A stretch of DNA of 64,000 nucleotides from the NCBI GenBank assembly GCA_963702475.1, contig CAVPCT010000009.1, positions 256,001-320,000 on the forward strand, read 5' to 3'. Source of the stretch: an uncultured Thermoleophilia bacterium (lineage in GTDB: Bacteria; Actinomycetota; Thermoleophilia; UBA2241). Below are positions 10,186 to 61,737 of the stretch, one piece after another (the first letter of the stretch is position 1; the number at the start of each line of letters is the position of its first letter). The position numbers and the translations under genes were made by a program. The notes beneath the pieces were generated by a model. The model had not been told where the DNA came from. It saw only the letters and a list, made by a program, of their open reading frames with translations, and searched no databases.

Positions 10186-10425
10186 GTGGACAAGCCCCGC
10201 ATCGACGAGCTCTTGCCGCACGCCGACGGCTCACGGTACGAGCTGGTCATGATCGCCGCCAAGCGCGCGCGCCAGATCAACAGCTACTACCACAGCCTCG
10301 GCGAGAACACGATGGGCATCGAGGACCTCACCCCGCCGCTCATCAACACACGCAGCACGAACCTCCTCACCATCGCCTTCGAGGAGATCGTCGACAACAA
10401 GATCGAGCACACCTGCCCCGAGTGA
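10186..10425 (+). CDS. rpoZ: RNA polymerase omega subunit
   Basis: SRYELVMIAAKRARQINSYY; between gmk and coaBC. Confidence 0.93.
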   Translation: MDKPRIDELLPHADGSRYELVMIAAKRARQINSYYHSLGENTMGIEDLTPPLINTRSTNLLTIAFEEIVDNKIEHTCPE

Positions 10426-10432
10426 ACCGGGC

Positions 10433-45106: not shown

Positions 45107-45362
45107 GGCCCGCGCGGGTGGTGACGGCCGTTTCGTGGCTGCAGTAGTCTCGGACCCCAAGCCGGGATGCAGCCGGCGGTCACCGTCCACGGTCTGTCCG
45201 TCCGATGGGCGCTTGACGGTGAATCGCATCTCGCCGGTGCAGGGCTGGGAAAGCGTTCCGCCATGAACTCGCCTCAAGCGGTCACAGAGGGGGTGATGCT
45301 CTCCACTCGAGTCCTTGGGTTCTTACCTACGTCGTCAGCAAGAGTCCGGAAGGAGGAGCCAC

Positions 45363-46769
45363 ATGGCTGGACCTGGGACGAAAGCCCAGCGAGCGCGCAT
45401 GACGGTCTTCGAAGCGTACGAGAGGGCCCGTAAGGGTCCCAAGTTCGATGAGGCGGTCTGGAACTTCGAGCTCATCCCACAGACCGCCAAGCGGTTGAAG
45501 GAGAAGTACGAGATCGTGATGGACAAGTCCGTCATGGTCCCAACCGATCCCGAGCTCATGACGAAGCTGTACAAGGCCGGCCTTGAGATGCTGGTCGAGT
45601 GCGGCGTGTACGTCATCGACACGAAGCGCATCATCAAGTACACCGAGGAAGAGATCCTCCTCGGCCTCGCGACGGCGCCCAAGACGTGCGTGATCGGCGA
45701 AGGCCTCCACGCGCGCCCCATGGAGTACCGCACCCACAAGGACTCGCGCCCGCCGCTGGTCCAGGGCGGTCCGACCGGCGCTCCCTGCAGTGAGCAATAC
45801 TTCTTCCCGATCCACGAGTCGTACGTCAAGGAAGGCATCGTCGACTGCATCGTGGACGGCGTGCTCTCCACCGTGAACGGCTACAACCCCGCCCCCGACA
45901 CGCCCTGGGAGGTCCTCGCCGGCCGCCAGGAGATCATGATGGTGCGCATGGCGCAGGCCAAGTGCGGCCGCGCGGGCATGGGGTTGTAGGGTCCCGAGAC
46001 CACGCTGAACGCAGCCGCCACGATCTCTCAGGACTTCCCGGGCGGCATGCGTACCTCGGACAACCACGAGGTGTCGCAGCTGAATGAGCTGAAGACCGAC
46101 CTAGGAGCGTTGCTCTTCACCTCTCATTACAGTCTCGCTGCGAACAACATCATGGTTGAGCAGATGCCGATCTTCGGCGGGTTCGCCGGTGGTCTCGAGG
46201 AGACGACCATCGTCAACGTCGCCACGCATATCAACTCGTTCGTGACGTTCGGCGGCACCTGGCACCTCGACGGTCCTGTCCACATGCGGTGGGGCATCAC
46301 GACGACCAGGGAGGCCCTGGCTATCGCGGGTCACGCCATCATGGCGGTCAACTCCGTCTGGCCGATCCTGAGCGGCAACCAGTACTACACCATGGCCGGT
46401 CCCTGCACCGTCATGTGCCTCCTGGAGACGGCTGCACAGGCCATCACCGATACCGCCAGCGGTCGCGAGATCATGTCCGGCGTCGCCGCCGCCAAGGGCG
46501 TCATCACCGACAAGACCACCGGCATGGAAGCCCGCTTCATGGGCGAGTGTGCGCACGCTGTCGCCGGCATGCCGACCGAGCAGACCAACGAGGTCCTCGA
46601 CGCGTTGGTGAAGATGTACGAGGGCGACTACAAGACGGCCGACCAAGGCAAGTTCTTCTACGAGTGCTACGACGTGGAGAAGGTCGTGCCCACGGACGAG
46701 TACCTCGAGGTCTACGACAAGGCTTGCGAAGTGATGAAGGGCCTCGGCGTCAAGCATCCACTCTGGTGA
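45363..46769 (+). CDS. mtmB: Monomethylamine:corrinoid methyltransferase with an in-frame amber (Pyl) codon at 45987-45989 (468 aa)
   Basis: AYERARKGPK, VQGGPTGAP, GRAGMGL-O-GPET; frame continues HEVSQLNELK, AGPCTVMCL, TGMEARFMGE; AGGAGG RBS. Confidence 0.93.
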
Positions 46770-46817
46770 GACGCGCCCGGTCAGTGAACACGCCGAGTCA
46801 GAGGAGGCTCTAGGCAA

Positions 46818-47459
46818 ATGGGAGACGCTGAGTTCATCAATGAAGCGATCGACTCGCTCCTGAACTACGACAAGGACAGGGCCGTCGACGTCGCAAACAA
46901 GGCCATCGCCGCCGGCATGGCACCAGACAAGCTGATGGCCGAGGGATTCGTGATCGGCATCCGCCAGCTGGGCGACAAGTTCGACGAGGGCGAGGTCTAC
47001 CTGCCCGAGCTCATGCTCGCGGCGGCCGCCATGGAAGCTGCCATGGCGATCTGCAACGCCGCGCTGCCTGAGGGCAAGAGCGAGGTACGCGGCAAGGTCG
47101 TCATCGGCACCGTCGAGGGCGACGTGCACGATATCGGCAAGGCCATCGTCTGTGCGTACCTGCGCGCCAACGGCTACGAGGTCTGGGACCTGGGCCGCGA
47201 TGTGCCGGTCGAGGACTTCGTCGACAAGGCCGAGGAGGTCGGCGCCGACATCATCGGCGCCAGCGCCCTGCTCACGGCCACCATGCGCAAGCAGTCGGAG
47301 ATCGTGGCGGAGCTCAAGGACCGCGGTATCCGCGAGAAGTACAAGTTCGTCGTCGGCGGCGCGCCCTGTACGCAGGAGTACGCCGACTCCATCGGCGCCG
47401 ACGCCTACGCGGCCGACGCCAGCGACGGCCTCAAGAAGATCGAGGAGCTCGTCAAGTAA
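46818..47459 (+). CDS. mtmC: Methylamine corrinoid protein (cognate of MtmB)
   Basis: YLPELMLAA, GTVEGDVHDIGK, SALLT, VGGAP. Confidence 0.9.
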   Translation: MGDAEFINEAIDSLLNYDKDRAVDVANKAIAAGMAPDKLMAEGFVIGIRQLGDKFDEGEVYLPELMLAAAAMEAAMAICNAALPEGKSEVRGKVVIGTVEGDVHDIGKAIVCAYLRANGYEVWDLGRDVPVEDFVDKAEEVGADIIGASALLTATMRKQSEIVAELKDRGIREKYKFVVGGAPCTQEYADSIGADAYAADASDGLKKIEELVK

Positions 47460-47497
47460 GAGTTGAGCCGGCGGCAGGCCGGCAGACACACCTGCCT

Positions 47498-47534
47498 GGA
47501 GGGCGGCGCTCGCACCACGCGGGCGCCGCCCTTC
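47498..47534 (+). terminator. GC-rich hairpin after mtmC
   Basis: 16-bp stem (2 GU) GGAGGGCGGCGCTCGC/GCGGGCGCCGCCCTTC. Confidence 0.6.
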
Positions 47535-47663
47535 GCCGTACAGCAGAGATTGTGCTGAGTGTCACGTTCACATAAGGCACCTTGGCGGCCCATCAGTCGC
47601 CTTCACTTGGGGAGGTAGCCGAATGAAGAGCAGATCGCACCTGCACGACGACGGAGCGGCGCC

Positions 47664-48023
47664 ATGAGCACCCCGGACGTCGACTCCATCGTCGAACAAG
47701 CACTCGAAGCGGAAGTGCACGGCGGCAAACACGACCCGCGCATCGACAAGCTCTTCCGCCAGGACGTCATCACCATCTACGTCTTCGTCATCGCCCTGTG
47801 GCTCGTGCTCTGGACGGTGTTCTTCCTCGTCGCCAACCCTGTGATCGACGACGACAAGCTGCGCTGGCTCCTCATCGGACTCGGCGTGTTCGCCTCGATC
47901 TTCAACAGCGTCGGCATGATCTCCAACACCCGCAGGCTCAAGCACGAGGCCGTGCGCTTCTACTCGCAGGACCTGTTCTGGCAGGACGAGAAGAAGCGGC
48001 GCAAGGCCGCAGGGCTGCTGTGA
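47664..48023 (+). CDS. Small 2-TM membrane protein
   Basis: Two hydrophobic helices, high-GC3 codons, RBS. Confidence 0.8.
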   Translation: MSTPDVDSIVEQALEAEVHGGKHDPRIDKLFRQDVITIYVFVIALWLVLWTVFFLVANPVIDDDKLRWLLIGLGVFASIFNSVGMISNTRRLKHEAVRFYSQDLFWQDEKKRRKAAGLL

Positions 48024-48053
48024 GCGGGCCGTGGTTCGGGAAGGAGGCACGGA

Positions 48054-48236
48054 ATGACTGACCTGGACAACCAGCCGCCGCAGGTCCAAGAGGAGGAGTG
48101 GGTGCCGTACAAGGGGTACGTGCCGCCCACGCAGAGCAAGGTGTGGCAGGTCATCGACGTACTGTTCGTGATCATCCTCTGCTACGTCTGCCTGCTCATC
48201 CCGATCCTGCTCACCGGCAAGATGATCGTGGGGTGA
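48054..48236 (+). CDS. Small 1-TM membrane protein
   Basis: AAGGAGG RBS; VIDVLFVIILCYVCLLIPILL. Confidence 0.75.
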   Translation: MTDLDNQPPQVQEEEWVPYKGYVPPTQSKVWQVIDVLFVIILCYVCLLIPILLTGKMIVG

Positions 48237-48239
48237 CCG

Positions 48240-48578
48240 ATGAGCCTACGTTCACTCACCCGCACCGGACGCGGCCGCAGGTCGCGCCGCGCCGCGGTGC
48301 TCCTGACCTTCGTGGTGCTTGCGGCGGTGCTGTTTCTGAGCGTCGCCGGCGGCGCCCTGGCCGCAGACGACACCGCCGTGTTCACCGAGGGCAACCCGAA
48401 CGTGCAGACGGCGGAGGGCCTGGAGGCCCCCGAGCTCGACTACAACTTCGTGTGGTGGACCTTCATCCTCACCTTCGGTCTTCTGATCGTGTACTACCTC
48501 GTGATCCTCCGGATCTCCGAGACTGAGTTCAAGAAGATCGTCGATGCCCACTTCGGGCCCAAGCGCGAAGGGAGGTGA
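48240..48578 (+). CDS. Small membrane protein (signal or TM plus second TM)
   Basis: Basic N-terminus, hydrophobic segment ending ALA, second TM, then RISETEFKKIVDAHFG. Confidence 0.75.
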   Translation: MSLRSLTRTGRGRRSRRAAVLLTFVVLAAVLFLSVAGGALAADDTAVFTEGNPNVQTAEGLEAPELDYNFVWWTFILTFGLLIVYYLVILRISETEFKKIVDAHFGPKREGR

Positions 48579-48585
48579 CGGGGAG

Positions 48586-48774
48586 ATGCAGGCAATCAAC
48601 TACGTCATCTGGGCGATCGCCATAGCCCTGCTCGTCTGGCTCGTCTACGACGCGTTCCGCATCGAGACGACCTACGACGCCGAGCTCCTCGTCAGCTCCG
48701 TCGAAGGCGAGATCGAGAAGGAGATCCTCGACCACGCGCACCCGAGCACGCCGCCGCAGGGGGGTGCTAGCTGA
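48586..48774 (+). CDS. Small 1-TM membrane protein
   Basis: MQAINYVIWAIAIALLVWLVYDAFR...LLVSSVEGE; stop overlaps the permease start. Confidence 0.75.
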   Translation: MQAINYVIWAIAIALLVWLVYDAFRIETTYDAELLVSSVEGEIEKEILDHAHPSTPPQGGAS

Positions 48775-50195
48775 TGGCCGCCCACGAAGTCGCAGCCGTC
48801 GGCGGCGCCGACATCACGCAACCGAAGCGCCTGAGCCTGCTCCGCGTCCTCGGCCCCATGCACGTGTGGGCTCTGGGCGTCGGCATCGTGCTCGTGGGCG
48901 AGTTCATGGGCTGGAACTTCACCGTGGCCAAGGGCGGCGTGTTCGGCGGCCTCGTGGCCTGCTGGTTCTCGGGCATCCTGTACTCCTGCGTCGCCATGAT
49001 CGACTCCGAGGTGAGCTCGACGGTGGCGTCGGCAGGCGGGCAGTACGCCCAGGCCAAGCACATCCTCGGCCCGCTCGCCGCGTTCAACATCGCCCTGTTC
49101 ATCATCTTCGAGTACTGCATGCTGTCGGCCGGCGACGCCCTCGTCATCGGGGCCCTGGTCAACAGCCTCGATCCCGCCCTCAGCCCCACGCCGGTCGTCG
49201 TGCTCACCATCGCCTTCCTGGCGTGGCTGAACTACCGCGGGGTGCACACCACGCTGACGTTCAACTTCATCATCACCGCCATCGCGTTCGTCACGATCCT
49301 GATCCTGATCGCGGGGGCGGAGTTCTGGAACCCGGGCCACATCACCCAGACCGAGGCTCTCTTCGCGCAGCCGCCCGGTGGCCTCGACCCGAAGTTGCCG
49401 TACGGCTGGCTCGGCATCCTGGCGGCGCTTCAGTTCGGCATCTGGTACTACCTCGGCATCGAAGGTACGTGCCAGACGGCCGAGGAGTGCCGCTCCGCGC
49501 CGCGCGCGCTGCCGGTGGGGACCATGTCGGGTCTGATCACCCTGCTGCTGGCAGCCACGCTCACCTGGTACATCTGCACCGCACTGGTGAACTGGATCTC
49601 CCTGGGCGAGTCGGTGTACCCGCTCTACGACGCCGCCGTGAACACCGGCAAGGGCTGGCTGATGGTGATCCTCTGGATAGGGTCGCTGCTCAGCTGTCTG
49701 GCGTCGTCCAACGGGTGCATCAACGACGCCTCGCGGGCCTGGTTCGCCATGGGGCGCGACCAGTTCATCCCCCGCTGGTTCGGCGGCGTCCACCCGAAGT
49801 ACAAGACGCCCTACCGCGCCATCCTGTTCCTGGTGCCGATCATGATCGCCTTCGGCTACACCGGGCTGCTCGACCAGGTCATCACCTTCTCGATCATCTC
49901 CGGCTGCCTGATCTACTTCATCATGCCGCTGAACATGATCAGGTTCCGCCGGCTCTACCCCATGGACTCGATCAAACGAGGGTACGTGTCTCCGTTCCAC
50001 CCGCTACCTTCGTACGTGTTGTTCGCGTTCGTGCTGCTGACGTTCATCGCCATGTACTTCGGCTACTGGCGCAACCTCGTCGCAGCTTTGGTCTTCTACG
50101 GCCTGTGCTCGCTCTGGTTCGTGCTGCACAGGTACAAGTTCGTGGACCGCACCAAGCTCTACACGATGCCGTGGCCGCGGCCCAAGGGCTACTGA
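48774..50195 (+). CDS. APC family permease, probable (mono)methylamine transporter
   Basis: VWALGVGIVLVGEFMGWNF, YLGIEG..QTAEE, HPKYKTPYRA; downstream of mtmBC. Confidence 0.85.
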   Translation: MAAHEVAAVGGADITQPKRLSLLRVLGPMHVWALGVGIVLVGEFMGWNFTVAKGGVFGGLVACWFSGILYSCVAMIDSEVSSTVASAGGQYAQAKHILGPLAAFNIALFIIFEYCMLSAGDALVIGALVNSLDPALSPTPVVVLTIAFLAWLNYRGVHTTLTFNFIITAIAFVTILILIAGAEFWNPGHITQTEALFAQPPGGLDPKLPYGWLGILAALQFGIWYYLGIEGTCQTAEECRSAPRALPVGTMSGLITLLLAATLTWYICTALVNWISLGESVYPLYDAAVNTGKGWLMVILWIGSLLSCLASSNGCINDASRAWFAMGRDQFIPRWFGGVHPKYKTPYRAILFLVPIMIAFGYTGLLDQVITFSIISGCLIYFIMPLNMIRFRRLYPMDSIKRGYVSPFHPLPSYVLFAFVLLTFIAMYFGYWRNLVAALVFYGLCSLWFVLHRYKFVDRTKLYTMPWPRPKGY

Positions 50196-50208
50196 GCGAG
50201 GGGAGGAC

Positions 50209-50655
50209 ATGATGTTCGAGACTCTGCTGGTAGCTACCGACGGGTCCATAGCCGCGGAGAAGGCCGTGACCTGGGCCGTCGACTTCGCCAAACGGCACGA
50301 CTCGAAGCTCGTCGTGCTCAACGTCACACCTGACAAGCGTGTGCGGCTCCAGGACCAGGAGCCCAACGCCCCGCCCGCCGGCGACGTGTCGCCGGCGGAC
50401 GCCGGGGATCTCGTCTCGGACGAGGCCCTGGCCCGGGCCGAGAGGCTGGCCAAGGAAGCGGGCGTGACCTACGTGCTCGAGGAGGTCTACGGCCGCAATA
50501 TCGCCGCCACCATCGCCAAGGAGGCGCTCAACGTCGGCGCCGACCACATCATCATCGGCTCCACCGGGGTGACCGCGCTGGCCACCTGCGTCCTCGGCTC
50601 GGTCGCGCAGAACGTGGTGCACTACGCGCACTGTCCCGTGACGGTGGTCAGGTAA
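50209..50655 (+). CDS. Universal stress protein
   Basis: LLVATDGS, IIIGSTG, LGSVAQNVVHYAHCPVTVV. Confidence 0.9.
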   Translation: MMFETLLVATDGSIAAEKAVTWAVDFAKRHDSKLVVLNVTPDKRVRLQDQEPNAPPAGDVSPADAGDLVSDEALARAERLAKEAGVTYVLEEVYGRNIAATIAKEALNVGADHIIIGSTGVTALATCVLGSVAQNVVHYAHCPVTVVR

Positions 50656-50701
50656 TGCGACGCCGAGGCCGCAGCCACGGCGCGGGGGAGGTGAGGACCA
50701 C

Positions 50702-51370
50702 ATGGACGTCACCCTCATCATCAAGATAGCCGTCATCGTGGCTGCGGCCCTCGGCCTCGGTTACCTGTACGTCACGTACGTCTATCGCGACCGCCACCGG
50801 ACGCAGCACATGCTCGACGGCTTCCTGCCAATCCTGGAAGGGCCGACGGTAGGGAGAAGTTCCTGGGGCTACGAGCGCCTCGAGGGCGTCCTGGATGGAG
50901 ACCGGGTCAAGATCGACCTGCTCCCGGACTCGCTCATCACGCGGACCCTTCCCACGCTCTGGCTCGAGGTGTGCCTGTGCCGTCCTTTCGACGCGTTCCT
51001 GTGTGTGATCACATTGTGCAACGGCATGGAGTACTTCGCCGACGAGGTCGACGAGGGCACGCTCCTCAACACGCCGAGCACCTGGCCCGAAGGCGTGAGG
51101 GTGCGAGGCAAGAGCTTCGGCAGCGTGGGGCTCCTGCGGCGCGTCGCGGACGTCGACATCGGGGCCTACCCGCACCTCAAGCTGCTGGTCTTCAGCGAGA
51201 CCGGACTCAAGGTGGTCATGCGTGCCGCCCGCGGGGACGTCTCCCAATACAGGGTCATGCGGTCGGCAACCTTCGCTGAAGACTCAGTCAAACCCGAACT
51301 CGTCGACGAGACGGTCCGGCTCGTGCGCCACCTCGAGCGCGTGCTGGTACGTGGAGAGGAGATAGCGTGA
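50702..51370 (+). CDS. Hypothetical protein with an N-terminal TM anchor
   Basis: GAGG RBS, N-terminal hydrophobic helix, stop overlaps the next start. Confidence 0.75.
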   Translation: MDVTLIIKIAVIVAAALGLGYLYVTYVYRDRHRTQHMLDGFLPILEGPTVGRSSWGYERLEGVLDGDRVKIDLLPDSLITRTLPTLWLEVCLCRPFDAFLCVITLCNGMEYFADEVDEGTLLNTPSTWPEGVRVRGKSFGSVGLLRRVADVDIGAYPHLKLLVFSETGLKVVMRAARGDVSQYRVMRSATFAEDSVKPELVDETVRLVRHLERVLVRGEEIA

Positions 51371-51831
51371 GCAAGGTGCGCCGGGCCCGGCGGCCCCAGA
51401 AGCCGGCCCCCAAAGGCGAACTCAAGAAGCCGCGTCCGGTGTGGTTCGTCACGCTGCTGGCGTTCGTCCTGCCCGGGAGCGGCCAGTGGCTGAACGGCGC
51501 CCCCATCAGAGGCATGGTCATGCAGTTCAGCATGGTGCTGGGCGCGTACCTCACGTACCAGCTCACCACGCCCGAGATCTCGCCGGTCGGCCGCCTTGCC
51601 GGAGGCCTGCTGGTATGGGTCTTCTCGATCGTGGACGCCCATGGGATCGCCACCCGCAGGGTGAAGGCGTGGGCGCGCATAGAGGCGTCGCAGGCCGCCT
51701 CGCCGAACCCACCGCAGGCGAAGAAGGCCGGCGGCGCGAGCGACGGCAAGCCGTCCGGAGGCGCCCCGCGACGCATGCAGCCGAAAGGCGCCTCCCGGCG
51801 GCCGGCGACCTCGGGGAGTCACGACACCTGA
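51367..51831 (+). CDS. Hypothetical 3-TM membrane protein
   Basis: LAFVLPGSGQWLNG...RG motif and hydrophobic segments. Confidence 0.75.
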   Translation: MSKVRRARRPQKPAPKGELKKPRPVWFVTLLAFVLPGSGQWLNGAPIRGMVMQFSMVLGAYLTYQLTTPEISPVGRLAGGLLVWVFSIVDAHGIATRRVKAWARIEASQAASPNPPQAKKAGGASDGKPSGGAPRRMQPKGASRRPATSGSHDT

Positions 51832-52003
51832 GCGGTGCCGAAGGCCCGCAGGTGCAGAGCGGCCCGGGCGACGCCCGGGCCGCTCTGCGTACGCGGCCCT
51901 CACACCGCGCGCCACGTGGGACCAGGTGTGGGAGGCGCCCACCTGCGGAAGAACCGACCCACCGGCGGCAGCGGCCGCCGGCCGCAACTGACCGGGGGTG
52001 CCC

Positions 52004-52213
52004 ATGAGCATCACGCTCTACACGCGACCCGACTGTCGCTACTGTGACGCGGCGCGCCGCTACTTGGACGAGCGCGGCGATGCCTATGAAGAGCGGGACA
52101 TCAGCGCCGACGTCGAGGCCGAACGGGAGGTCATCGCCATCACCGGCGGACCCCTGAGCGTGCCGATCACGGTCGAGGACGGCGACGTCAGGGTCGGCTT
52201 TCCGTATCAATGA
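52004..52213 (+). CDS. Glutaredoxin/NrdH-like protein
   Basis: LYTRPDCRYC, SVP, VGF. Confidence 0.8.
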   Translation: MSITLYTRPDCRYCDAARRYLDERGDAYEERDISADVEAEREVIAITGGPLSVPITVEDGDVRVGFPYQ

Positions 52214-52317
52214 GGAGGGGCGCGAGGGCGTACGCGCTGGATCTTCCAGCACGACCCCGAGCGCCGGCGCGCGTGACGCGCCTGGACCCGCCACACCTGA
52301 GCTGACCGGGCGAGCCC

Positions 52318-52442
52318 TGCTCCATTATGGAGCACGTTCTTGATTGACTTGTCCAATCTGGTATTCTGTGCCCGGATTGCAGTCTTTTCGCATGCCCCAG
52401 AGCCCCGAAAGCCTTGACGGACACTCCGAGGCTACATACATT
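52318..52442 (+). promoter_or_regulatory. Palindromic operator and two candidate promoters upstream of mtbB
   Basis: TGCTCCAT-T-ATGGAGCA 52318-52334; TTGATT-16-TATTCT with extended TG; TTGACG-17-TACATT 52414-52442. Confidence 0.55.
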
Positions 52443-52730
52443 GTGTCGCACACGCGAGGCCGGCTGTGCCCAAACGGCATACGCCTTGTACTGAAGCTAT
52501 ACTTCGTGGCCTCACGAGGTGACCAGCTATCGACTCCGAACGCTCGACGCGGTACCCCCGCGAACGGCAAAGGGAGGCCCGTCCTGTGTCGACGGACCAT
52601 GCGATGCGATCCACCGAGCGTGCCGCGTCACCAGGGGGCTCGTTGCCTTGGATGACCGACGACGCCCCACGCCCACCGCCCGTGCGCGGTCTGTCTCCGC
52701 GCTCTCTCACCACAATGGAGGTGTGACGCA

Positions 52731-54131
52731 GTGAGCAAGATCTGGACCCGAATGGGTGACGGCAACGCCGTCGAACTGACCCCAGACGAACTCCGCCAGG
52801 ACATCATCGCGGCGACTGAAGACGCCGCGGACAAGGGGCACATCCCGCCCCTTGAAGAGAACGAGATCGACCACCTGTATGACCTCTTCGCGGCGCCGTA
52901 CCGCATCATCGGCGTCGAGCCCGGCCATGAAGTGCCGCTGACCAAGGACGAGACGGCGTGCACCCTCGTCTCCTCGCAGCTGTCGAGTGGTTCACACCTG
53001 GCGATAAGCCGCGAAGACGCAGTCGAAGTCTTCGAGCGCGTGTTCGCGTTCGACACCATGGAGCTGGGCTGGATCGACTACTCCTTCAAGCCGGCGAAGC
53101 CCATGGTCTCTCTGGACCAGGTCTCCATCGAGCGCATCATGGCCACCACCGTGTTCCCGGTGCTCTACGGCGCCATGCCGAACATGGGCCTCTACTACAC
53201 GCCGGACGGGCCGTTCACCAACCCGGCCGACCTCCTCGGCATGATGAAGGTCGAAGAGGCGCGTGAGGAGGAGATGAAGGCCGCCGAGCTCTGCATGGAA
53301 GACATGATCTTCGTGTGCGAGCGCATGAACGAGATCGGCGCCGACGGCATCGACTTCGACACCACGGCCTCCGCGGGTGACGCCGACTTCTGGTCGGTCC
53401 TCAAGACGGTCGAGCATCTCAAGGCCCACACCGACCTCGGCGTCGAGATGGGCATGTCCGGCGAGTTCATCCTCGGCATGCACGGCGAGGTCGAGTACAA
53501 CGGCAAGAGGCTCGCCGGCATGTTCCCGCACCAGCAGCTGAAGTGCGCGGAAGAGGCGGGCGTCGACATCTTCGGCCCCGTGGTCAACACCAAGACCAAC
53601 AAGTCCTGTGCCTGGAACGTCGCCCGCGCCGTCACGTTCGTCAAGGAAGTCTGCAAGCAGGCCACCATCCCGATCCACGCGAACGTGGGTATGGGCGTAG
53701 GCGGCACGCCGATGTTCGAGACACCGCCGATCGACGCTCTCAGCCGCGCGAGCGTAGCCATGGTCGAGATCGCCAAGGTCGACGGGTTGTAGGTCGGCGT
53801 CGGCGATCCCTACGGCATGTCCATCATGCACTCGATCGCATCTGGAATGGGTGGCATCCGCACCGCTGGAGACCTGGTGGCAAGGATGGAGCTCAATCAC
53901 CGGATGAGGCTTCCCGAGGCGAAGAAGTACGTGGCCGACAAGCTCGGCGTCAGCGTGTTCGACCTGTCGGACTCCACCGTCATGCGCAACCTGCGCGAAG
54001 AGCTCAACATCGGCGTGATCGAGGCGATCCCGGGCCTGGCGAAGGGCTACACCGCCAAGGCGCGCATCGCCGATCTCCTCGACATCAAGATCAACGGCGT
54101 CGAGCGCCAGATGGCGAAGATGCCGGCTTGA
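52731..54131 (+). CDS. mtbB: Dimethylamine:corrinoid methyltransferase with an in-frame amber (Pyl) codon at 53790-53792 (466 aa)
   Basis: [45 protein letters not shown]...[12 protein letters not shown]. Confidence 0.93.
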
Positions 54132-54191
54132 TGCGGGAGTCAGCGACTCTCTCGCAGGTTCAGCGAACTCTGACCCACGGAGGTCACGGGA

Positions 54192-54839
54192 ATGGCGAAT
54201 GAAGACTTCTATGCGGATGCGAAAGCCGCAATCCGCGCGTGTGACGCCGACAAGTCCGCTCAGGTGGCAACAGACGCCCTCGCGGCCGGCGTAGCGCCCG
54301 ACGACATGCTGAAGCTGGGATTCATCCCGGGCATCAGCGCGATGGGCGATCTCTTCGAGCGCGGCGAGGTGTTCCTCCCCGAGCTCGTCCTCGCGGCGAA
54401 CGCCATGACGGCGGCTGCTGCGGTGTGTAACGCGGCCCTGCCCGAGGGCGAGGCGGAGGCGAAGGCCATCGTCGTCATCGGCACCGTCCAGGGCGACGTG
54501 CATGATATCGGCAAGACCATCGTCGTCGCGTTCCTCAGGGCCAACGGCTACAACGTGTTCGACCTTGGTCGCGATATCTCGGGCGACAAGTTCATCGCCG
54601 CCGCGGAGGAGAAGGGCGCCGCCGTCATCGGTATGAGTGCCCTGCTCACCACCACCATGCGCGAGCAGACGCGTGTCATCGAGGCTCTCAAGGCCGCGGG
54701 TCTGCGCGACAAGTACAAGGTCATCGTCGGCGGCGGCGCCTGCACCCAGCAGTGGGCCGACAAGATCGGCGCGGACGCGTACGCCGAAGACGCCAACGAC
54801 GGCATCCGCAAGATCAACGAGCTCACGGGAAACGCGTGA
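54192..54839 (+). CDS. mtbC: Methylamine corrinoid protein (cognate of MtbB)
   Basis: FLPELVLAA, GTVQGDVHDIGK, SALLTTTM. Confidence 0.9.
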   Translation: MANEDFYADAKAAIRACDADKSAQVATDALAAGVAPDDMLKLGFIPGISAMGDLFERGEVFLPELVLAANAMTAAAAVCNAALPEGEAEAKAIVVIGTVQGDVHDIGKTIVVAFLRANGYNVFDLGRDISGDKFIAAAEEKGAAVIGMSALLTTTMREQTRVIEALKAAGLRDKYKVIVGGGACTQQWADKIGADAYAEDANDGIRKINELTGNA

Positions 54840-54862
54840 CCGCACGTTGTTAGGGCGGGATC

Positions 54863-54899
54863 CCGGCGGCGCGGTGGAGCTACTCCGCCGCGCCGCCGG
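54863..54899. terminator. Hairpin between convergent genes
   Basis: 17-bp stem CCGGCGGCGCGGTGGAG/CTCCGCCGCGCCGCCGG. Confidence 0.65.
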
Positions 54900-54904
54900 C
54901 GCCC

Positions 54905-55786
54905 TCAGCGTTCACGCACCCATTTCGCGTAGATGTTGGCAGCACGCCGGTCCATCTCCTCGGTCTCGGTCACACCGCTGCGCTCAAGCGCCTCGGCCGC
55001 ACCCTTCACTCGTGCCCGGCGCAGACAGATCAGCGTGACGACAAGCAGGCTGCGCGTGCCCTTGTCGGCCGAGGGCAGCGCCTCCTCGATCGGGGGGATC
55101 ACCCCTCCGCCGAGCTCTTCCAGGCCGAGTGCGAGCAGAGGGCCCACGACGGCCTCGCCGTACTCGGACGCCACGGAGATGACGTGCCGCACGCCGGCGT
55201 AGCGCATCGCCGAGATCTTCGCGCGAGCCTCCGTGCGGCCCGAGTGGACCGTGGAGTACATGCGCATGATCGTGCTCCCTCGGTCCAGCTGCATCCGTGT
55301 CAGACTGGCGCTGATGCGCGAGAGCTGCCGGTCGATCTCCTCGTTGCGGGTCCGCGTCAGTTGCTCGACCTGCTCGCTCATCGCCGCGGCCGGTCCGGCG
55401 AGGTCGGGGCGCGATGCATCCGACGCGACAACGCGCAGCAGCTCGTGGGCGGCGGGCAGGTCACGGTAGCGGGCGTAGAGGTACACGGTGTACAGAGCGC
55501 CGCGGCGGCGCACGTCGTCGTCGGCGTCCAGCTGCCCGGCGACGTCGGTGAACGTCGCTTCGCCGAGCTCGACGAGCACGGCGCCGGCCTTGCGCTGCAG
55601 GCTCTCGTCCCCGAGGCAGGTCAGCAGCGACTCCCGGCCGTTCTGACCGAGGTCGGCGAGAGCCGCGAGGATGGGCCGGCGCACGTCGCGCCTGGTGGCC
55701 GCCGCGTACAGCTGCGTGAGGCCGGCCACATCACCGGCGTCGTGAAGGCTGGTGATGTCGCTCTGGCTCGGCATCTGGTTGCTCAT
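54905..55786 (-). CDS. Hypothetical alpha-helical (HEAT-repeat-like) protein
   Basis: GGGGAG RBS; DVRRPILAALADLG, DDDVRRRGAL, VIPPIEEAL repeats. Confidence 0.65.
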   Translation of the reverse strand: MSNQMPSQSDITSLHDAGDVAGLTQLYAAATRRDVRRPILAALADLGQNGRESLLTCLGDESLQRKAGAVLVELGEATFTDVAGQLDADDDVRRRGALYTVYLYARYRDLPAAHELLRVVASDASRPDLAGPAAAMSEQVEQLTRTRNEEIDRQLSRISASLTRMQLDRGSTIMRMYSTVHSGRTEARAKISAMRYAGVRHVISVASEYGEAVVGPLLALGLEELGGGVIPPIEEALPSADKGTRSLLVVTLICLRRARVKGAAEALERSGVTETEEMDRRAANIYAKWVRER

Positions 55787-55900
55787 CGGCTCTCCCCGGG
55801 ACGTTCGCTGACATGCCGGCCACACGCCGGCGACGGACAGCGTACCCGCGCCGGTCGCGCAAGGCCAGCGAGGCACCCGGCTGCGGGCGAGCCACGGCCG

Positions 55901-55946
55901 GGCCCATGCAAGGGTATTGACTCCTCGGGTAGACGCAAGGTACCTT
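55901..55946 (+). promoter_or_regulatory. Degenerate 7-2-7 site abutting the SSS transporter promoter
   Basis: GGCCCAT-GC-AAGGGTA 55901-55916 then TTGACT-18-TACCTT; same GGGTATTG junction as at mtmB. Confidence 0.5.
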
Positions 55947-56197
55947 GCCTCATCCTTCGGCCCGCCGCGCCCCATCGGGGGAGCGCCGGCGCGACCGACA
56001 GAGGTGTATCCCTGGTCCTGCGTGCACGGCATCCGGGGGGATCGCCGTCGCACTGGGGAGGTGGTGCCGCAACCTGAGCCGCCGGACGACCACCGGTCTC
56101 GCGCCCGGTGCCGGCCCGTTTCATGCCGGCACGTCACCGGGCCAAAGCCATGGTCCCGGGATCTCTCACACAACGTCAACGAGCAGAGGGGGGAGCA

Positions 56198-57817
56198 ATG
56201 ATAGTGGCAGCCGCGATCAGTCCAGTCTGGTACTGGGTCATCGTGCTCGGCTACATGCTCGTGCTGATCGGGATCGGCGCCTGGACGTACCGCTACCAGA
56301 AGCAGCAGAAGTCCGCGACCGACGAGCACGACGACTACTGGATCGCCAAGCGCCGCAACAACGCCCTCGTGGTGGGCTGCGCCATCGCTGCAGGCTGGTT
56401 CCTGATGGGCTTCATCACCTGGGCCATGTACAACACCTACATGTACGGCATCGGCGGCATCTGGGCCATGGTCGTACCGTGGACGGTGCTGCTGTTCTGC
56501 ATGGTGATCCTCGTGCCGTGGGTACGGCGCATGAAGGCCATCTCGCAGCCGCAGATGCTCCAGCAGCGCTTCGGACTGGCTCTGCGCGTGCTCGTGAGCC
56601 CGTTCAACATGTTCTGCTTCATCATCTGGGCCGCGGCGGAGATCTGGACGGTCTCGCTGTACATGGCGTCGGCATTCGGCGTCCAACCCTGGGTCCTCTA
56701 CATCGTCTTCGCCGTGCCCTGCGCCCTCTACATGGCCCTGGGCGGCTTCCACGCCGTCATCAGCGCCAACCTGCTGCAGTTCGCCATGGGCGTCACCTTC
56801 GTCACCATCATCTTCTTCGTGATGGTCTTTGAGGCGTGGGACGCCCTGCCCAGTGGCCAGAGCATGATCGACTACCTCGGGAGCGTCGTACCGGCGGGCA
56901 ACTCGGAAGGCGACAGTGCGCTCACGCTCTTCAGCCTGGGCATACCGTTCGCCATCTTCTCGCTCATCGCACTCCTGCCGGGGTGGGTGATCGAGGAGGA
57001 CTGGTGGCTCAAGGCGCAGTCGGCCAAGAGCACGCGTGCCGCACGGCAGGGCATCTGGGCCAACCTGAGCTACAACCTCATCTGGATCCTCGGCCTGCCG
57101 AGCCTCATCGGCCTCTTCGCCCTCGTGCTTTATCCGCCGGAAGTGCTCGACACCAAGCTGGCCGGGAACGCCTACGAGCTCATGCCGGTGTTCCTGGGTG
57201 ACTACTTCCCGCCTTGGCTGCAGATGATCGTGTTCTGCCTCATGGCTGCACACGCCGTAGCCACGGTGGCTACGTTCACCAACGTGTCGGCCCTCAACAT
57301 CAGCTACGACGTCCTGCAGCCGCTCGTATACCGCAAGCGCGGGTGGGGTGACGCCAGGATCGTGCTGGCCAGCCGCATCGCGTCGCTGTTGGTCGTCATC
57401 GCCACCCTGGGCGTGACGTTCCTCATCGACATGCTGCCGCAGGGCCTGTGGGACGCGTACTACCTGTCCAGCGGTGTGCTCTCTGCTGCCGTCGGCGTCT
57501 CCGTACTCTCCATCTTCTGGAAGCGCGCCAACTTCGCCGGTGCTTTCGCTGCGTCGCTCGTCGGTGGCGTCACCACACTCGTGCTGTTCATCGTGGAGAA
57601 GTACGTCTGGGAGTACGACTGGCCGATCCCGATCCCGGATTCCATGGTCGCTACCGGCTACGCCTACGCGGTGGTCGGCGTGATCCTCGCCATCATCACC
57701 CTGGTCGTGGTCACGCTGCTGACGCCCAAGCCGCCGCAGATCAACCTCGACTCCATCTCGGCGCAACCCGTTGACGATCACGCCGAGTTCTTCGCCGGCG
57801 TGCGTGAGACGTACTGA
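56198..57817 (+). CDS. Sodium:solute symporter family transporter
   Basis: DYWIAKR, QMLQQRFG, YMALGGFHAVISANLLQF, FWKRANFAGA; about 13 TM. Confidence 0.88.
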   Translation: MIVAAAISPVWYWVIVLGYMLVLIGIGAWTYRYQKQQKSATDEHDDYWIAKRRNNALVVGCAIAAGWFLMGFITWAMYNTYMYGIGGIWAMVVPWTVLLFCMVILVPWVRRMKAISQPQMLQQRFGLALRVLVSPFNMFCFIIWAAAEIWTVSLYMASAFGVQPWVLYIVFAVPCALYMALGGFHAVISANLLQFAMGVTFVTIIFFVMVFEAWDALPSGQSMIDYLGSVVPAGNSEGDSALTLFSLGIPFAIFSLIALLPGWVIEEDWWLKAQSAKSTRAARQGIWANLSYNLIWILGLPSLIGLFALVLYPPEVLDTKLAGNAYELMPVFLGDYFPPWLQMIVFCLMAAHAVATVATFTNVSALNISYDVLQPLVYRKRGWGDARIVLASRIASLLVVIATLGVTFLIDMLPQGLWDAYYLSSGVLSAAVGVSVLSIFWKRANFAGAFAASLVGGVTTLVLFIVEKYVWEYDWPIPIPDSMVATGYAYAVVGVILAIITLVVVTLLTPKPPQINLDSISAQPVDDHAEFFAGVRETY

Positions 57818-57861
57818 GCCGGGTCGGCGAAGGCCACTTCAGGCAAGAGAGGACGGTCAGC

Positions 57862-58317
57862 ATGGCATACACAATCGTGGTGGGGTACGACGGGTCCGAG
57901 CCGGCCAAGAAGGCGCTGGCCGCGGCCATCGAGTTCGCCAAGACCACACCCGACGCCGAGATCGTGGTCGTCTGCGGCCAGGACCGCAGGCCGGGGTACT
58001 TCTACTATGACGACCAGCCACTGTGGAAAGAGGCCATCAAGCTCGACCAGATGTGGGAGCACATGGAGGCCAAGATCGAGGAGGACCTCCAGGAAGCGGT
58101 GAAGGTCGTCCAGGACGCAGACGTGAAGGCGACCGCTGCCTGCGGTCGCGGACGGCCGTCTTCGATCGTGCTGAACGTGGCGCGAGAGACCGGCGCCCGC
58201 CTCATCGTCGTGGGCACACACGGCTCCGGCAAGGACGAGGAGACCACGGTGATGGGCTCCACGACGACGGAGCTGCTTCACCAGACGCACGTGCCAGTGC
58301 TGGTCGTGCCTCACTGA
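57862..58317 (+). CDS. Universal stress protein
   Basis: IVVGYDGS, LIVVGTHG, MGSTTTELLHQTHVPVLVV. Confidence 0.9.
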   Translation: MAYTIVVGYDGSEPAKKALAAAIEFAKTTPDAEIVVVCGQDRRPGYFYYDDQPLWKEAIKLDQMWEHMEAKIEEDLQEAVKVVQDADVKATAACGRGRPSSIVLNVARETGARLIVVGTHGSGKDEETTVMGSTTTELLHQTHVPVLVVPH

Positions 58318-58512
58318 CCACCGTGCGCGCCTGACGCGCACGGAGTGCCCGGCCGCCGGCGAGTCTCTGGCTCGCCGGCGGCCGGTAGTACGGCCCGGCC
58401 CGGGCCGTGGAACATACGGGGAGAGTCGCGACCGGCGGCCGTCCGGGGGCTCGTTCGTCTGAGCCCGGAGGTCCACCGGTCGTGTCCCCTCTTAACATCC
58501 TTGGGGGAGTCG

Positions 58513-59367
58513 GTGACCTTCGACGAATTCGCACTCATGCTCACAGCTGGGCCCAGGGCCAAGCTGCGGGCGGAAGTCTCCCTGGAGGACCGCGAGCGCA
58601 TCCTGCGCTCCCTCATGGGCCGCCTTCCCGTCATGGTCTACCGCTGCGCCGACGACGCCCAGTGGACCATGGAGTTCGTGAGCGCCGGAGCAGAGGAGAT
58701 CACCGGCTACAAGCCGGAGGAGCTCGTTGGCAACGCCCGGCTGGCGTACACCGACCTGGTGGTGCCGTGGCACTACGAGGGCGTCTGCCGCGACATCCAG
58801 CACGCCATCGAGAAGCACAACGCGTGGACGACGTCCTACCCCATCATCACCGCGTCAGGCGACCGCAAGTGGGTGTGGGAGCGCGGTGTGGCCGTGCTCG
58901 ACGACGCCGGGGAGGTGATAGCGCTTGCAGGGATCATCATCGACATGACCGTGGAGCGCGAGGCCGAGGAGTCACTCGAGCTCGCGCTCGCCGAGTGGCG
59001 CCAGGTGTTCGACGCCATGGACGACGCCGTGATGGTCCTGGACGGCGACGGCGAGGTGCTGCGAGCCAACGCGGCGGCAGCGGCTCTCAGCGGACTCGAT
59101 CAGGCCGAGATGGCCGGGCTCAAGTGCTCGGACGCGCTGCAGGAGCTCTGCGGCCAGGCCCAGGGCATGTGTCCTCGCGACAGGGTGCTGCTGTCGGGGC
59201 GGACGGAGATGACCTACGTGGAGCACGAAGGCAGGCTGCTTCGCCTGACGTTCAAGCCGACCCCGGTCATGGACGGACGCGTCAACGGCGGCTTGTACGT
59301 CGTGAGCGACGTCACGGACGCCGTCCGGGCACGGCCGCAGGACGCACCGGGTACGTCCTACGTGTGA
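58513..59367 (+). CDS. Tandem PAS-domain protein without an output domain (start approximate)
   Basis: MVYRCADDAQWTMEFVS..EITGY; EWRQVFDAMDDAVMVLD..LRANAAA. Confidence 0.8.
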   Translation: MTFDEFALMLTAGPRAKLRAEVSLEDRERILRSLMGRLPVMVYRCADDAQWTMEFVSAGAEEITGYKPEELVGNARLAYTDLVVPWHYEGVCRDIQHAIEKHNAWTTSYPIITASGDRKWVWERGVAVLDDAGEVIALAGIIIDMTVEREAEESLELALAEWRQVFDAMDDAVMVLDGDGEVLRANAAAAALSGLDQAEMAGLKCSDALQELCGQAQGMCPRDRVLLSGRTEMTYVEHEGRLLRLTFKPTPVMDGRVNGGLYVVSDVTDAVRARPQDAPGTSYV

Positions 59368-59406
59368 GACGCGGCGGGCGCCGCCCGCCGCGCGTCTGCA
59401 CCGGCG

Positions 59407-59748
59407 TCAGGATGCTGAGCGTCTGAGGAGGTCGGCCGCACTCGCGAAGAGCCATTCGGTGCGGGTGCGACACGTGACTATCGTGGCCAGGTCGAGCTCG
59501 CCCGGCAGCTCTTCGTCGACGAACGCGGCCGCAAGGTCCTTGACGCGGATCGGCTCCTGGCCGCCCCTCTCCATCTCGGCCAGTTCCATCATCACGGCCA
59601 CGCCCTTGCCGTCCCACTCATTGGGGACCACTGCGCACGAGAAGACGAAGGGGTGACCGTCGAGCTCGTATTCCTGGATCTCCCGCCGGCGCGCCAAAGA
59701 GACGGGATCGGTTGCCGGGTCCCCGCTGCGAACCAGCCACTCGCTCAT
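59407..59748 (-). CDS. Hypothetical protein (113 aa)
   Basis: GGGAGGA RBS, high-GC3 codons. Confidence 0.65.
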   Translation of the reverse strand: MSEWLVRSGDPATDPVSLARRREIQEYELDGHPFVFSCAVVPNEWDGKGVAVMMELAEMERGGQEPIRVKDLAAAFVDEELPGELDLATIVTCRTRTEWLFASAADLLRRSAS

Positions 59749-59963
59749 CGTGTCCTCCCGCTCGTTCGCTCGGCGCATCGCCCGCCTCGAGTGCCAGTGT
59801 GGAAGTGCGAGAGCGGAATCTTGTGCCGTTCTGGCGAATTCAGTGCCCTGTGGGGCCTTATGCGGTAGAGTACTGCGCAACAGGGTGCGGGAAGCGGCAA
59901 AACAGATGTTCACTGTGTCCATCTATAAGCTACGCACTAGGCCATAACAAACAACATTGAGCC

Positions 59964-59993
59964 TTGATGCAGGGGTCGCGTATCTCCTATAGT
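59964..59993 (+). promoter_or_regulatory. Candidate mttB promoter
   Basis: TTGATG-18-TATAGT preceded by an AT-rich stretch. Confidence 0.5.
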
Positions 59994-60261
59994 CGCGCTC
60001 ACCACCGTCCATAACGGCGACACATCGAGAAGGCTCTGTGTACTGTCTGGGTGCACGGCCTTTCTCATCGCACGTTGTCACACTCCGGGCTTCGGCCCAC
60101 GCGTCGACCATGACGGGCCACGTTCCCACCGTCGACTGGATCGTGGCGCGAACCGCGCTCAAGGGAGGAGGCGGGATGACGAGATGAGGGCGAGCCCACG
60201 AGGCCCTGCGGCCGGGTTCGCCCAGAACCGCTATCTGCAAAGTGCGTAAGAAGGAGGCGGA

Positions 60262-61737
60262 ATGATTCGAAGTCAAAGGTCAGGCATCAACCACCAGGGC
60301 GGCATCGGCATCGATGTCTTCAGCGAGGATGAGAGGCAGGCCATCCACTGGGGCACCGTCGAGGTGCTCGAGACGGCCGGCATCTGGGTGGAGGACGACG
60401 AGGCCCTCGACCTGTTCGCCGACGGCGGCTGCAAGGTCGACCGCTCGACGCGCAAGGTGCGGATCCCGCAGCACGTGCTCGAGGAGTGCATCAGTTGGGC
60501 GCCCTCCACGGTCACCCTCTGCGGCCGCGACCCCGCCAAGGACCTCGTCATGGAGGGCCGGCGGGTCGCGTTCACCAACTTCGCCGAGGGAGTGAAGGCC
60601 GTCGACCTGTACGACGGCAAGCTTCGCCCGACCACCAAGAAGGACGTCGGCGACCTCGCCCGTCTCGTCGACGCGCTCTCCGACATCGAGGTCTACACGA
60701 TCGCGGTGACGGCCACCGACGTGCCCCCGGAGGTCGCCGAGGCGCACCTCATCGAGCAGTCGTTGCTGAACACGACGAAGCCCATCTGCAGCCTGGCCCT
60801 CGCCCATCACGGCGCCCGCCTCCACATCGACGCCGCGGCCGCCGTGGTCGGCGGCCACGACAAGCTGGCCGACCGGCCGATGCTGCTCTTCCTCAGCTGC
60901 CCGGTCAGCCCGCTCAAGCTCATGGGCGAGTTCAGCGGGTGCATCATCGAGGCGGCCCGCGCCCATCAGGTCGCGATGCCGCTATCGATGGCCATGTCAG
61001 GCGGCTCCGCCCCGGTCACCCTGGCCGGCACCATGGTCACGCACAACGCCGAGGTGCTCGCCGGCATCGTCCTGGCGCAGCTCGCCGAGAAGGGCGCCAA
61101 GTGCGTCTACGGCACCTCCACCACCGCCTTCGACCTGCAGCGCGCGGCCGCGACCGTGGGCACCCCGGAGCTCGGCCTCATCAGCGCGGCCGTGGCCGAG
61201 ATGGGCCGCTACTATGGCCTGCCGACCTACGGCGCCGGGTTGTAGAGCGATTCCAAGCTCGGCGGCGACGCCCAGGTCGCGCACGAGAAGACCGTCACCG
61301 GCCTCCTGCCAGCGTTGGGAGGGCTCAACCTGATCTATGGAGCCGGGATGATCGAGTCGGGCGTCACCATCGACTACGGCACGCTCGTCATGGACAACGA
61401 CATCGCCCGTATCTGCAAGTACGTCCTGCGTGGCATCCCCACGAACGACGCGACGCTGATGGTTGATGAGATCATCGAGGTGGGGTCCGAGGAGGACTTC
61501 CTCTCGAGGATGAGCACCCTGAAGCTGATGCGTGAACACCAGTCCAAGGCCGGCAACATCGACCGCCGCGTGCGCGAGGAGTGGGAGATGGACGGCGGCA
61601 AGGACATGTACAGCCGCTGCAACGAGATGGCCAAGGAGCTCGTCGAGAGCCACACGGTTCCCGAGCTGCCGAGCGACGTCAAGGACCAGATCAGGGCCAT
61701 CGTCGTCAAGGCCGAGAAGGACGCTGGAGTCGCCTGA
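60262..61737 (+). CDS. mttB: Trimethylamine:corrinoid methyltransferase with an in-frame amber (Pyl) codon at 61243-61245 (491 aa)
   Basis: NTTKP, CPVSPL, SMAMSGGSAPVTLAGT..THNAEVL, GTPELG, YGAGL-O-SDSK...HEKT, NLIYGAGM. Confidence 0.93.

Follow-up and report, generated by a model that had tools for sequence, protein, structure and literature searches.

How organisms that use pyrrolysine (Pyl) handle the ambiguous UAG codon is an open question. In Methanosarcina, a stem-loop 3' of the mtmB UAG, the pyrrolysine insertion sequence (PYLIS), is thought to aid read-through and is non-essential, and in Pyl-using archaea neither a targeted Pyl insertion mechanism nor a broadly conserved sequence cue is known, according to the available text of a 2025 study (PMC12626013). 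A 2026 ribosome-profiling study (PMC13663744), in its accessible sections, raises "local codon context" as no more than a possibility, and a Pyl-gene predictor, as far as its accessible description goes, examined downstream sequence only (PMC3639795). In mammalian cells, silent changes of two codons flanking the UAG shifted tRNAPyl suppression 1.4- to 22.9-fold, with upstream nucleotides weighing more than downstream ones (PMC8216290, available part). A literature search of partly accessible texts, with supplements outside its scope, returned nothing on a 5' codon kept constant beside Pyl UAGs, and an earlier mention is possible. Here we analyze the codons that precede the in-frame TAGs of three methylamine methyltransferase genes, mtmB, mtbB, and mttB, in a 64-kb stretch (the window; C9:256001-320000, contig CAVPCT010000009.1) of the 4.3-Mb, 70% G+C assembly of an uncultured Thermoleophilia bacterium. 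Comparison with homologues indicates that the codon immediately before the TAG (position -1) is very probably under real selection; where it encodes Leu in bacteria, it is TTG or TTA (together TTR) at 196/207 sites.

The three genes lie on the + strand of the window. mtmB (monomethylamine methyltransferase; 45315..46769) matches PF05369 (E 1.2e-198, 661 bits), mtbB (dimethylamine methyltransferase; 52731..54131) matches PF09505 (E 2.6e-197, 656 bits), and mttB (trimethylamine methyltransferase family; 60262..61737) matches PF06253 (E 2.4e-89, 300 bits), with a curated family profile cut-off of 25 bits for assignment. One TAG is the sole in-frame stop of each gene, the profile match is full-length when this TAG is read through, and the TAG aligns with that of homologues. 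Since the genome contains tRNA-Pyl(CUA), pylS (C-terminal domain), pylB, and pylD, reading these TAGs as Pyl is justified, and by profile, aligned TAG, and Pyl machinery alike the three are Pyl-dependent methylamine methyltransferases. The mtmB start given by the open reading frame (ORF) lister is TTG 45315; because the Pfam match begins only at residue 29, ATG 45399 is the likelier start.

All three TAGs close the same 9-mer, GGGTTGTAG, which stands on the + strand at 45981-45989 in mtmB, 53784-53792 in mtbB, and 61237-61245 in mttB and reads GGG (Gly, -2), TTG (Leu, -1), and TAG (Pyl) in frame, as an earlier reading made from the letters and their ORFs (the sequence-only reading) had pointed out. 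The 9-mer is expected 0.08 times in the window, and none of 100 dinucleotide-preserving shuffles reached the four copies found; the fourth, absent from the earlier list, is a - strand copy (45881-45889) that reads Tyr-Asn-Pro codons of mtmB in antisense. The window holds no further copy beyond these four. With all window copies thus accounted for, no true TAG stop in the window carries the 9-mer, which agrees with the earlier claim (the number of such stops, given as 7, was not recounted). Both codons are minority choices, as had been judged by eye: over the genome (2006 long ORFs; 51,694 Leu codons), GGG is used for 18% of Gly and TTG for 2.8% of Leu, and within the three gene families the shares are 14 to 18% and 4 to 11%, respectively. 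The probability from codon usage, a calculation proposed with the original observation, is, for three GGG-TTG pairs given Gly-Leu, about 1e-7 to 1e-6 on a naive count, and the coincidence therefore calls for an explanation.

A tblastn search of the host genome with the three proteins found about 75 MttB-superfamily, 10 MtbB-family, and 5 MtmB-family loci, and TAG occupies the Pyl column in 26 genes (1 mtmB, 10 mtbB, and 15 mttB). Leu stands at -1 in 17/26, encoded by TTG at 16 sites and by CTG at 1, in a genome in which CTG supplies 47%, CUN codons together 97%, and TTA about 0.1% of Leu; the other -1 codons are GCG (3), TAC (2), CAG (2), ATG (1), and TTC (1). Close relatives have MtbB proteins with 82 to 86% identity. 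Within the genus and its neighbours, 31 mtbB rows have TTG at -1 with a single exception, which has TTA, and the -1 codon of mtmB is TTG in 8/8 genus orthologues. Leu-type mttB reads GGG TTG TAG in 12/12 rows (L083, which is the mttB of the window, its 9 orthologues, and 2 Leu-type genes at a greater distance). The orthologue group of the lone CTG exception, the mtbB beside pylS with GGT CTG TAG, has TTG in 8/9 members and CTC in 1/9 (GGC CTC TAG).

The wider tally comprised 346 distinct 183-nt contexts, each with TAG at the aligned column and deduplicated on the 183 nt, and its bacterial TTR count divides into 109/111 Leu sites for mtbB, 69/78 for mtmB, and 18/18 for mttB. Among 80 mtbB loci from GTDB species representatives (Thermoleophilia/Actinomycetota, Thermincola, Peptococcaceae, Natroniella, other Bacillota, and Desulfobacterales), Leu was found at -1 in 79 rows (TTG 59, TTA 20), and the single archaeon had ATA. 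Bacillota mtmB (15 rows; 12 of 401 sampled genomes) has TTG 14 times and TTA once, after Gly or Ala in any codon, and 80 metagenome mtmB loci have TTG (44), TTA (8), CTC (5), CTT (4), CTG (1), ATG (16), and ACG (2). TTA accounts for 20/122 distinct bacterial mtbB contexts, and 18 of the 20 cases among the 80 loci are in loci of 61 to 70% G+C. The Actinomycetota loci concerned (L124-L127, L133, L135, L136, L138, L139, L146, L151, L153, L155, L156, L169, L173, L177, and L186) carry TTA before the mtbB Pyl TAG though it is a near-absent codon in such genomes.

Relatedness was controlled for with the other columns of the same codon alignments, since these share one tree. Tblastn segments entered the alignments if they spanned >380 query residues and if a TAG was their one in-frame stop, and duplicates were removed; frameshifted or split copies of the host genome (C7:38260, C5:363200, C4:414, C5:932086, and C5:364551) are part of the 26-gene count and lie outside the alignments. 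In Thermoleophilia mtbB (58 coding sequences [CDS]), TTR was 94% at -1, against 0 to 11% in 20 other Leu columns, and in all bacterial mtbB (120 CDS) it was 97% of 109 Leu codons, with 2 parsimony switches, against 0 to 12% in 23 other columns. For mtmB (91 CDS) the values were 86%, with 6 switches, and 12 to 63% (24 columns). TTR was likewise fixed at -1 in low-GC bacterial mtbB (18/18; 0 to 56% in 23 other Leu columns) and in Bacillota mtmB (11/11; 0 to 70% in 28 columns), two sets in which it supplies about a third of Leu and is not rare. In every control alignment -1 was the highest-TTR Leu column, with a tie in the 8-sequence mtmB set.

The same codon choice is not seen where the TAG is missing or terminates. 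Where non-Pyl paralogues and homologues have Leu in the corresponding column, its codon is CTC or CTG in 11/11 cases (6/6 in the host genome, 5/5 in relatives). Before stop-like TAGs, Leu is encoded by CTG (19), CTC (4), and TTG (4, two of them antisense artefacts), and the -1 Leu codons of Pyl sites and stop-like TAGs differ (Fisher P = 1.7e-7), the stop set being a crude ORF call filtered by G+C at the three codon positions (GC1/GC2/GC3) in which antisense artefacts remain. A general pair bias of TTG before codons starting with TA was ruled out, as TTG was only 3.4% of the Leu codons in 1115 pairs before TAC. Taken together, these comparisons point to a synonymous constraint at -1 that is specific to the recoded stop. 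The constraint, its restriction to TAG-bearing genes, and its spread over Actinomycetota, Bacillota, and Desulfobacterota are direct observations in these alignments.

In archaea, for which the sample was Methanosarcinales, the -1 residues that the sequence-only reading had given for Methanosarcina proved roughly right (mtmB, I/V/L; mtbB, I; mttB, S/T/G). The mtbB -1 codon is ATA in 30/30 rows, with 0 to 50% ATA in 30 other Ile columns, and ATA is 13 to 15% of Ile codons in the sampled archaeal genes (15% in mtbB). Of 29 TAG rows of mtmB, 16 have ATA, 11 GTT, and 2 CTG, so that ATA encodes 16/16 Ile at -1, compared with 0 to 54% in other Ile columns. A second count gives ATA at -1 in 28/28 mtbB and 16/26 mtmB sites. 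The AUA freeze of mtbB and mtmB in Methanosarcinales is analogous to the UUR freeze in bacteria.

One way to read both freezes is that TTG/TTA and ATA are kept as rare, slow codons, which would make the ribosome pause before the UAG or tie synthesis to a particular tRNA, much as in bldA/TTA control in Streptomyces. The rarity of TTG and TTA in the host genome and of ATA in the archaeal genes fits this idea, and so do the additional TTG-rich columns of mtmB and mttB (see below). In low-GC bacteria, however, TTR is a common choice for Leu and is nevertheless invariant at -1, and a pause one codon upstream would bring no obvious gain for UAG decoding. We therefore consider a slow-codon explanation unlikely.

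The Gly codon at -2 behaves differently from the Leu codon. Gly itself is present at 26/26 Pyl sites of the host genome, encoded by GGG, GGC, or GGT, which bears out the earlier view that the residue is constrained by the protein, and Ala also occurs there in some distinct bacterial mtmB contexts. Among close relatives the codon is GGG, GGC, or GGT in mtbB (31 rows, in which the flanking Val, Asp, and Thr codons also vary freely) and GGG (5), GGC (2), or GGT (1) in genus mtmB orthologues (n = 8); across bacterial mtbB, distinct contexts have GGG (68), GGC (36), GGA (14), and GGT (4). The comparison thus indicates a protein-level constraint at -2 with an unconstrained codon. Tabulating these codons in relatives had been put forward as a test in which free synonymous variation would speak against a cis signal, and such variation was found for the Gly codon only, the Leu codon being held.

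The proposal that the whole 9-mer, including the E-site GGG, is a convergent cis signal marking sense UAG is consistent with its exact presence at 11/26 Pyl sites of the host genome and with the share of GGG at -2 in Thermoleophilia mtbB (53%, versus 18% overall). Against it, all four Gly codons, and Ala, are found at -2, and the codon is free among close orthologues. Moreover, GGG is already 42% of the Gly codons in the 182 Gly-TTG pairs of the genome, or about 40% after at most 16 Pyl-site pairs are taken out, and other Gly columns of mtbB reach 45 to 53% GGG, so that GGG at -2 follows the habit of this genome before any TTG. Of the 5' cis signal, then, the synonymous constraint at -1 stands and the part played by GGG does not: a signal of the full 9-mer is very unlikely, any signal is the -1 codon, and GGG is incidental. 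From codon counts, we lean slightly towards the 9-mer being the sum of a protein constraint on Gly, a GGG-TTG codon-pair bias, and a held -1 codon.

Used to predict further Pyl proteins, the 9-mer failed, recovering known families only: GGGTTGTAG occurs 39 times in the genome, 11 of these at known Pyl sites. Of the remaining 28 copies, 3 were examined and all were antisense of Tyr-Asn-Pro codons; one copy sits, by eye, in tRNA-like sequence. Two apparent stops reading GGG TTG TAG (C3:479336 and C3:445285) were rejected as antisense of real genes with Tyr-Asn-Pro, and an extra TTG-TAG candidate at C5:365913, from a scan that looked for coding-like sequence after TAGs, translates into low-complexity antisense junk. 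Ala-type mttB is an exception to the free -2 codon: it reads GGT GCG TAG in 30/30 sequences of the 51-CDS alignment (35 GCG and 37 GGT among distinct contexts; sites C6:948-956, C7:36703-36711, and C4:179952-179960; loci L093-L112 and L117-L122). Across the genome as a whole, just 7.6% of the Gly codons that precede GCG are GGT, and the invariant GGT of this group stands out as an exception.

Composition and ancestry could in principle produce the -1 pattern as a by-product, through avoidance of CTAG, codon-pair bias, shared descent, or gene conversion between paralogues. Before stop-like TAGs the third base of the -1 codon is G in 211/298 and C in 64/298, whereas C leads before TGA (1130/2078), so CTAG avoidance is real and can explain the loss of CTC and the use of GCG over GCC, including the GCG before TAG in Ala-type mttB; pair bias, as described above, accounts for GGG. 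Neither of the two extends to the choice of TTG over CTG, since CTG, the commonest Leu codon, makes no CTAG and is used at true TAG stops (19/27 Leu), and TTG is not enriched before TAC. Shared ancestry cannot link the sites, because the three families are unrelated and the other Leu columns went to CTN; the latter also holds for the paralogues, which are only 45 to 60% identical in protein and whose other Leu columns reverted to CTN. The by-product explanation is thus largely refuted by the present evidence and highly improbable.

RNA secondary structure around the UAG, whether like PYLIS or a long-range helix, is a further way in which the -1 codon might be frozen. Folding of ±40 nt and RNAalifold found no structure that the three UAG contexts share: the ±40-nt folds at the three UAGs have z scores of +0.46, -1.95, and -1.51 and unrelated shapes, and RNAalifold gave no consensus helix covering the -1 codon in mtbB or mttB. 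In favour of structure, the fold of the 124 nt that follow the mtmB UAG beats 199/200 shuffles (z = -2.88; mtbB, -1.19; mttB, -0.84), RNAalifold proposes for Ala-type mttB a long-range helix between the UAG region and codons about +29 to +33, and columns with low G+C at the third position (GC3) cluster just 3' of the UAG in mtbB and mttB. The relevant columns are near-invariant and leave no room for covariation. In the helices that can be drawn, C at nucleotide -3 would pair as well as or better than U, and for structure to fix one codon choice in three unrelated genes across several phyla, three different structures would be needed. We accordingly give a structural cause of the frozen -1 codon a small chance of being right.

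A PYLIS-like constraint downstream of the UAG is possible in its own right. In mtbB and mttB, almost every column of low GC3 falls within about 32 codons 3' of the UAG. The Gly codon 26 codons after the mtbB Pyl UAG is the rare GGA in 76/76 bacterial sequences (58 high-GC and 18 low-GC), followed by GAT in 60/76 and CTG in 64/76; Methanosarcinales mostly have GGT GAC CTT. In the window, these codons (+26 to +28; 53868-53876) are Shine-Dalgarno-like, lie 5 nt ahead of a GTG codon, and fall within a predicted hairpin. In mtmB, the antisense copy of the 9-mer at 45881-45889 and the copy at 45981-45989 form a 9-bp inverted repeat 91 nt apart. It was dropped as a candidate element: the helix appears in the minimum free energy fold, yet 45875-45995 folds no better than shuffles (z = -0.61), and the upstream arm is dictated by the protein sequence, so the repeat is probably incidental.

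While UAG is in the ribosomal A site, the P site holds the -1 codon together with its tRNA. Purifying selection very probably keeps the P-site Leu codon as UUG or UUA against the CUN used elsewhere in the genome. Choosing UUR instead of CUN changes the first base of the codon as well as the tRNA that reads it, with G and A both accepted in the third position even under strong GC pressure; AUA in archaea likewise picks a distinct tRNA, the AUA-reading tRNA-Ile2. A UUR-reading tRNA-Leu, an AUA-reading tRNA-Ile2, or the W-U-R nucleotides themselves (W, A or U; R, A or G) might tilt the competition at UAG towards Pyl-tRNAPyl over release factor; alternatively, the P-site context might ease accommodation or translocation of the atypical tRNAPyl. 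A P-site codon or tRNA context of one of these kinds is the simplest reading and the likeliest cause, with chances that seem to us about evenly balanced. The response of tRNAPyl suppression to silent changes in mammalian cells, as far as the accessible text describes it (PMC8216290), counts as a precedent for such a context. The broader proposition, that Pyl decoding depends generally on the P-site codon as a cis determinant (UUR in Bacteria and AUA in Methanosarcinales) that would measurably raise Pyl insertion over termination, is tentative, and we hold it with less than even confidence.

Several observations weigh against a role for the P-site codon in Pyl decoding. Bacterial mtmB has CTN in 9/78 Leu sites (CTC 4, CTT 4, and CTG 1), with 6 parsimony switches; the mtbB beside pylS in the host genome has CTG, and one of its orthologues CTC; and ACC TAG and TAC TAG also occur at Pyl sites. 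In Methanosarcinales, CTG is found at mtmB -1 in one genome, Val at mtmB -1 is always GTT, and the -1 codon of mttB varies freely over 7 TAG sites (TCA 2, TCG 2, TCC 1, ACC 1, and GGA 1). TTR-rich Leu columns exist away from the UAG, namely mtmB +41 (63 to 91%) and mttB +24 (90%). The former (window about 46110-46112, + strand) is TTG in 8/8 genus sequences, and TTR reaches 63% there in the 91-CDS set and 91% in its high-GC subset; the latter (window 61315-61317, + strand) is TTG-rich at 90% of 51. In addition, related sequences are not independent. No single-nucleotide or "weak codon" rule fits all -1 codons, as GCG, GTT, ACC, and TAC occur. A Pus7-like UGUAR motif, avoidance of +1/-1 slippage, and a "weak P-site codon" rule were dropped on paper, because CUG fits equally well or GCG, GTT, and ACC break them. 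Given CTN and the other exceptions, the -1 codon is a strong preference and not an absolute requirement.

Genes for corrinoid (B12-binding) proteins follow two of the methyltransferase genes on the + strand: one downstream of mtmB (46818..47459; PF02310 and PF02607) and one downstream of mtbB (54192..54839; identified by profile search). Elsewhere in the window, ARAGORN calls a 93-nt tRNA-Arg(TCG) at 10519-10611, unusually long for tRNA-Arg and lying within ORFs 10433-11650 (+) and 10367-11626 (-); the call may be spurious or the tRNA an odd one. The Pyl gene cluster of the genome is split, with pylB, pylD, and tRNA-Pyl at C3:637885-641118 and the pylS C-terminal domain at C3:657647-658372. 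pylS adjoins the mtbB paralogue at C3:655986-657347, the only one with GGT CTG TAG. The methyltransferase repertoire is very large for a 4.3-Mb Thermoleophilia genome (e.g., C4:2000-235000 and C5:331000-373000), and some copies look frameshifted or split (C5:362174-365021, C7:37206-38562, and C4:85-1439). MtmB-family homologues without an in-frame TAG are common in the genus (E 1e-63 to 1e-113) and also present in Methanosarcinales; in the host genome they lie at C5:571067-572416, C4:65316-66659, C9:248475-249818, and C2:42577-43938, and further ones are loci L041-L062.

The host is notable in that 26 TAG-bearing methylamine methyltransferase genes coexist with TAG as an ordinary stop, which ends about one in seven (~14%) of long ORFs by a crude ORF call. 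The conservation at -1 hints at an undescribed 5' context effect on reading a stop codon as an amino acid. It is present in three unrelated enzymes and in no fewer than three bacterial phyla, and methanogens show a different form of it, which reduces the question of how sense UAGs are handled to a simple experiment. If true, the -1 codon would be a first cue in the sequence to help cells that end many genes in TAG pick out their sense UAGs, and it could be used to improve amber suppression with PylRS/tRNAPyl and to inform context design in genetic code expansion. The constraint also offers annotators of high-GC genomes a rule of thumb, in which an in-frame TAG that comes straight after a rare TTG or TTA flags a Pyl gene.

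Compared with described systems, the -1 codon resembles PYLIS in being a cis context beside a Pyl UAG. PYLIS, however, is a downstream structure described as conserved in mtmB, whereas the constraint reported here concerns one codon, lies 5' of the UAG, and extends beyond mtmB to mtbB and Leu-type mttB; the 9-mer likewise lies 5' of the UAG and includes it, so that it differs from the 3' PYLIS, as the sequence-only reading had stated. The iPASS work (PMC8216290) deals with the same tRNA family at UAG and a similar dependence on context, but in a heterologous eukaryotic setting with engineered contexts, and its accessible text is silent on native Pyl genes and on the choice of UUR or AUA. Selenocysteine insertion directed by the selenocysteine insertion sequence (SECIS) also recodes a stop codon with the help of a cis signal; there, an RNA structure is read by a dedicated elongation factor, whereas here no structure was common to the three UAG contexts, and no factor search was made. 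In Escherichia coli, 5' codon context reportedly affects termination and nonsense suppression (work of Isaksson and colleagues), and Tork et al. (2004) and Cassan and Rousset (2001) are said to have described 5' codon context effects on stop codons. In such effects, as may be the case at Pyl sites, the last codon, its tRNA, or the last amino acids shift the balance between release factor and suppressor tRNA; they were measured on reporters, whereas the choice at Pyl sites is a natural, phylogenetically conserved, synonymous one, deduced from sequence comparison. The -1 constraint at Pyl sites would thus seem to belong with the 5' (P-site) context effects on stop codons, a known kind of effect.

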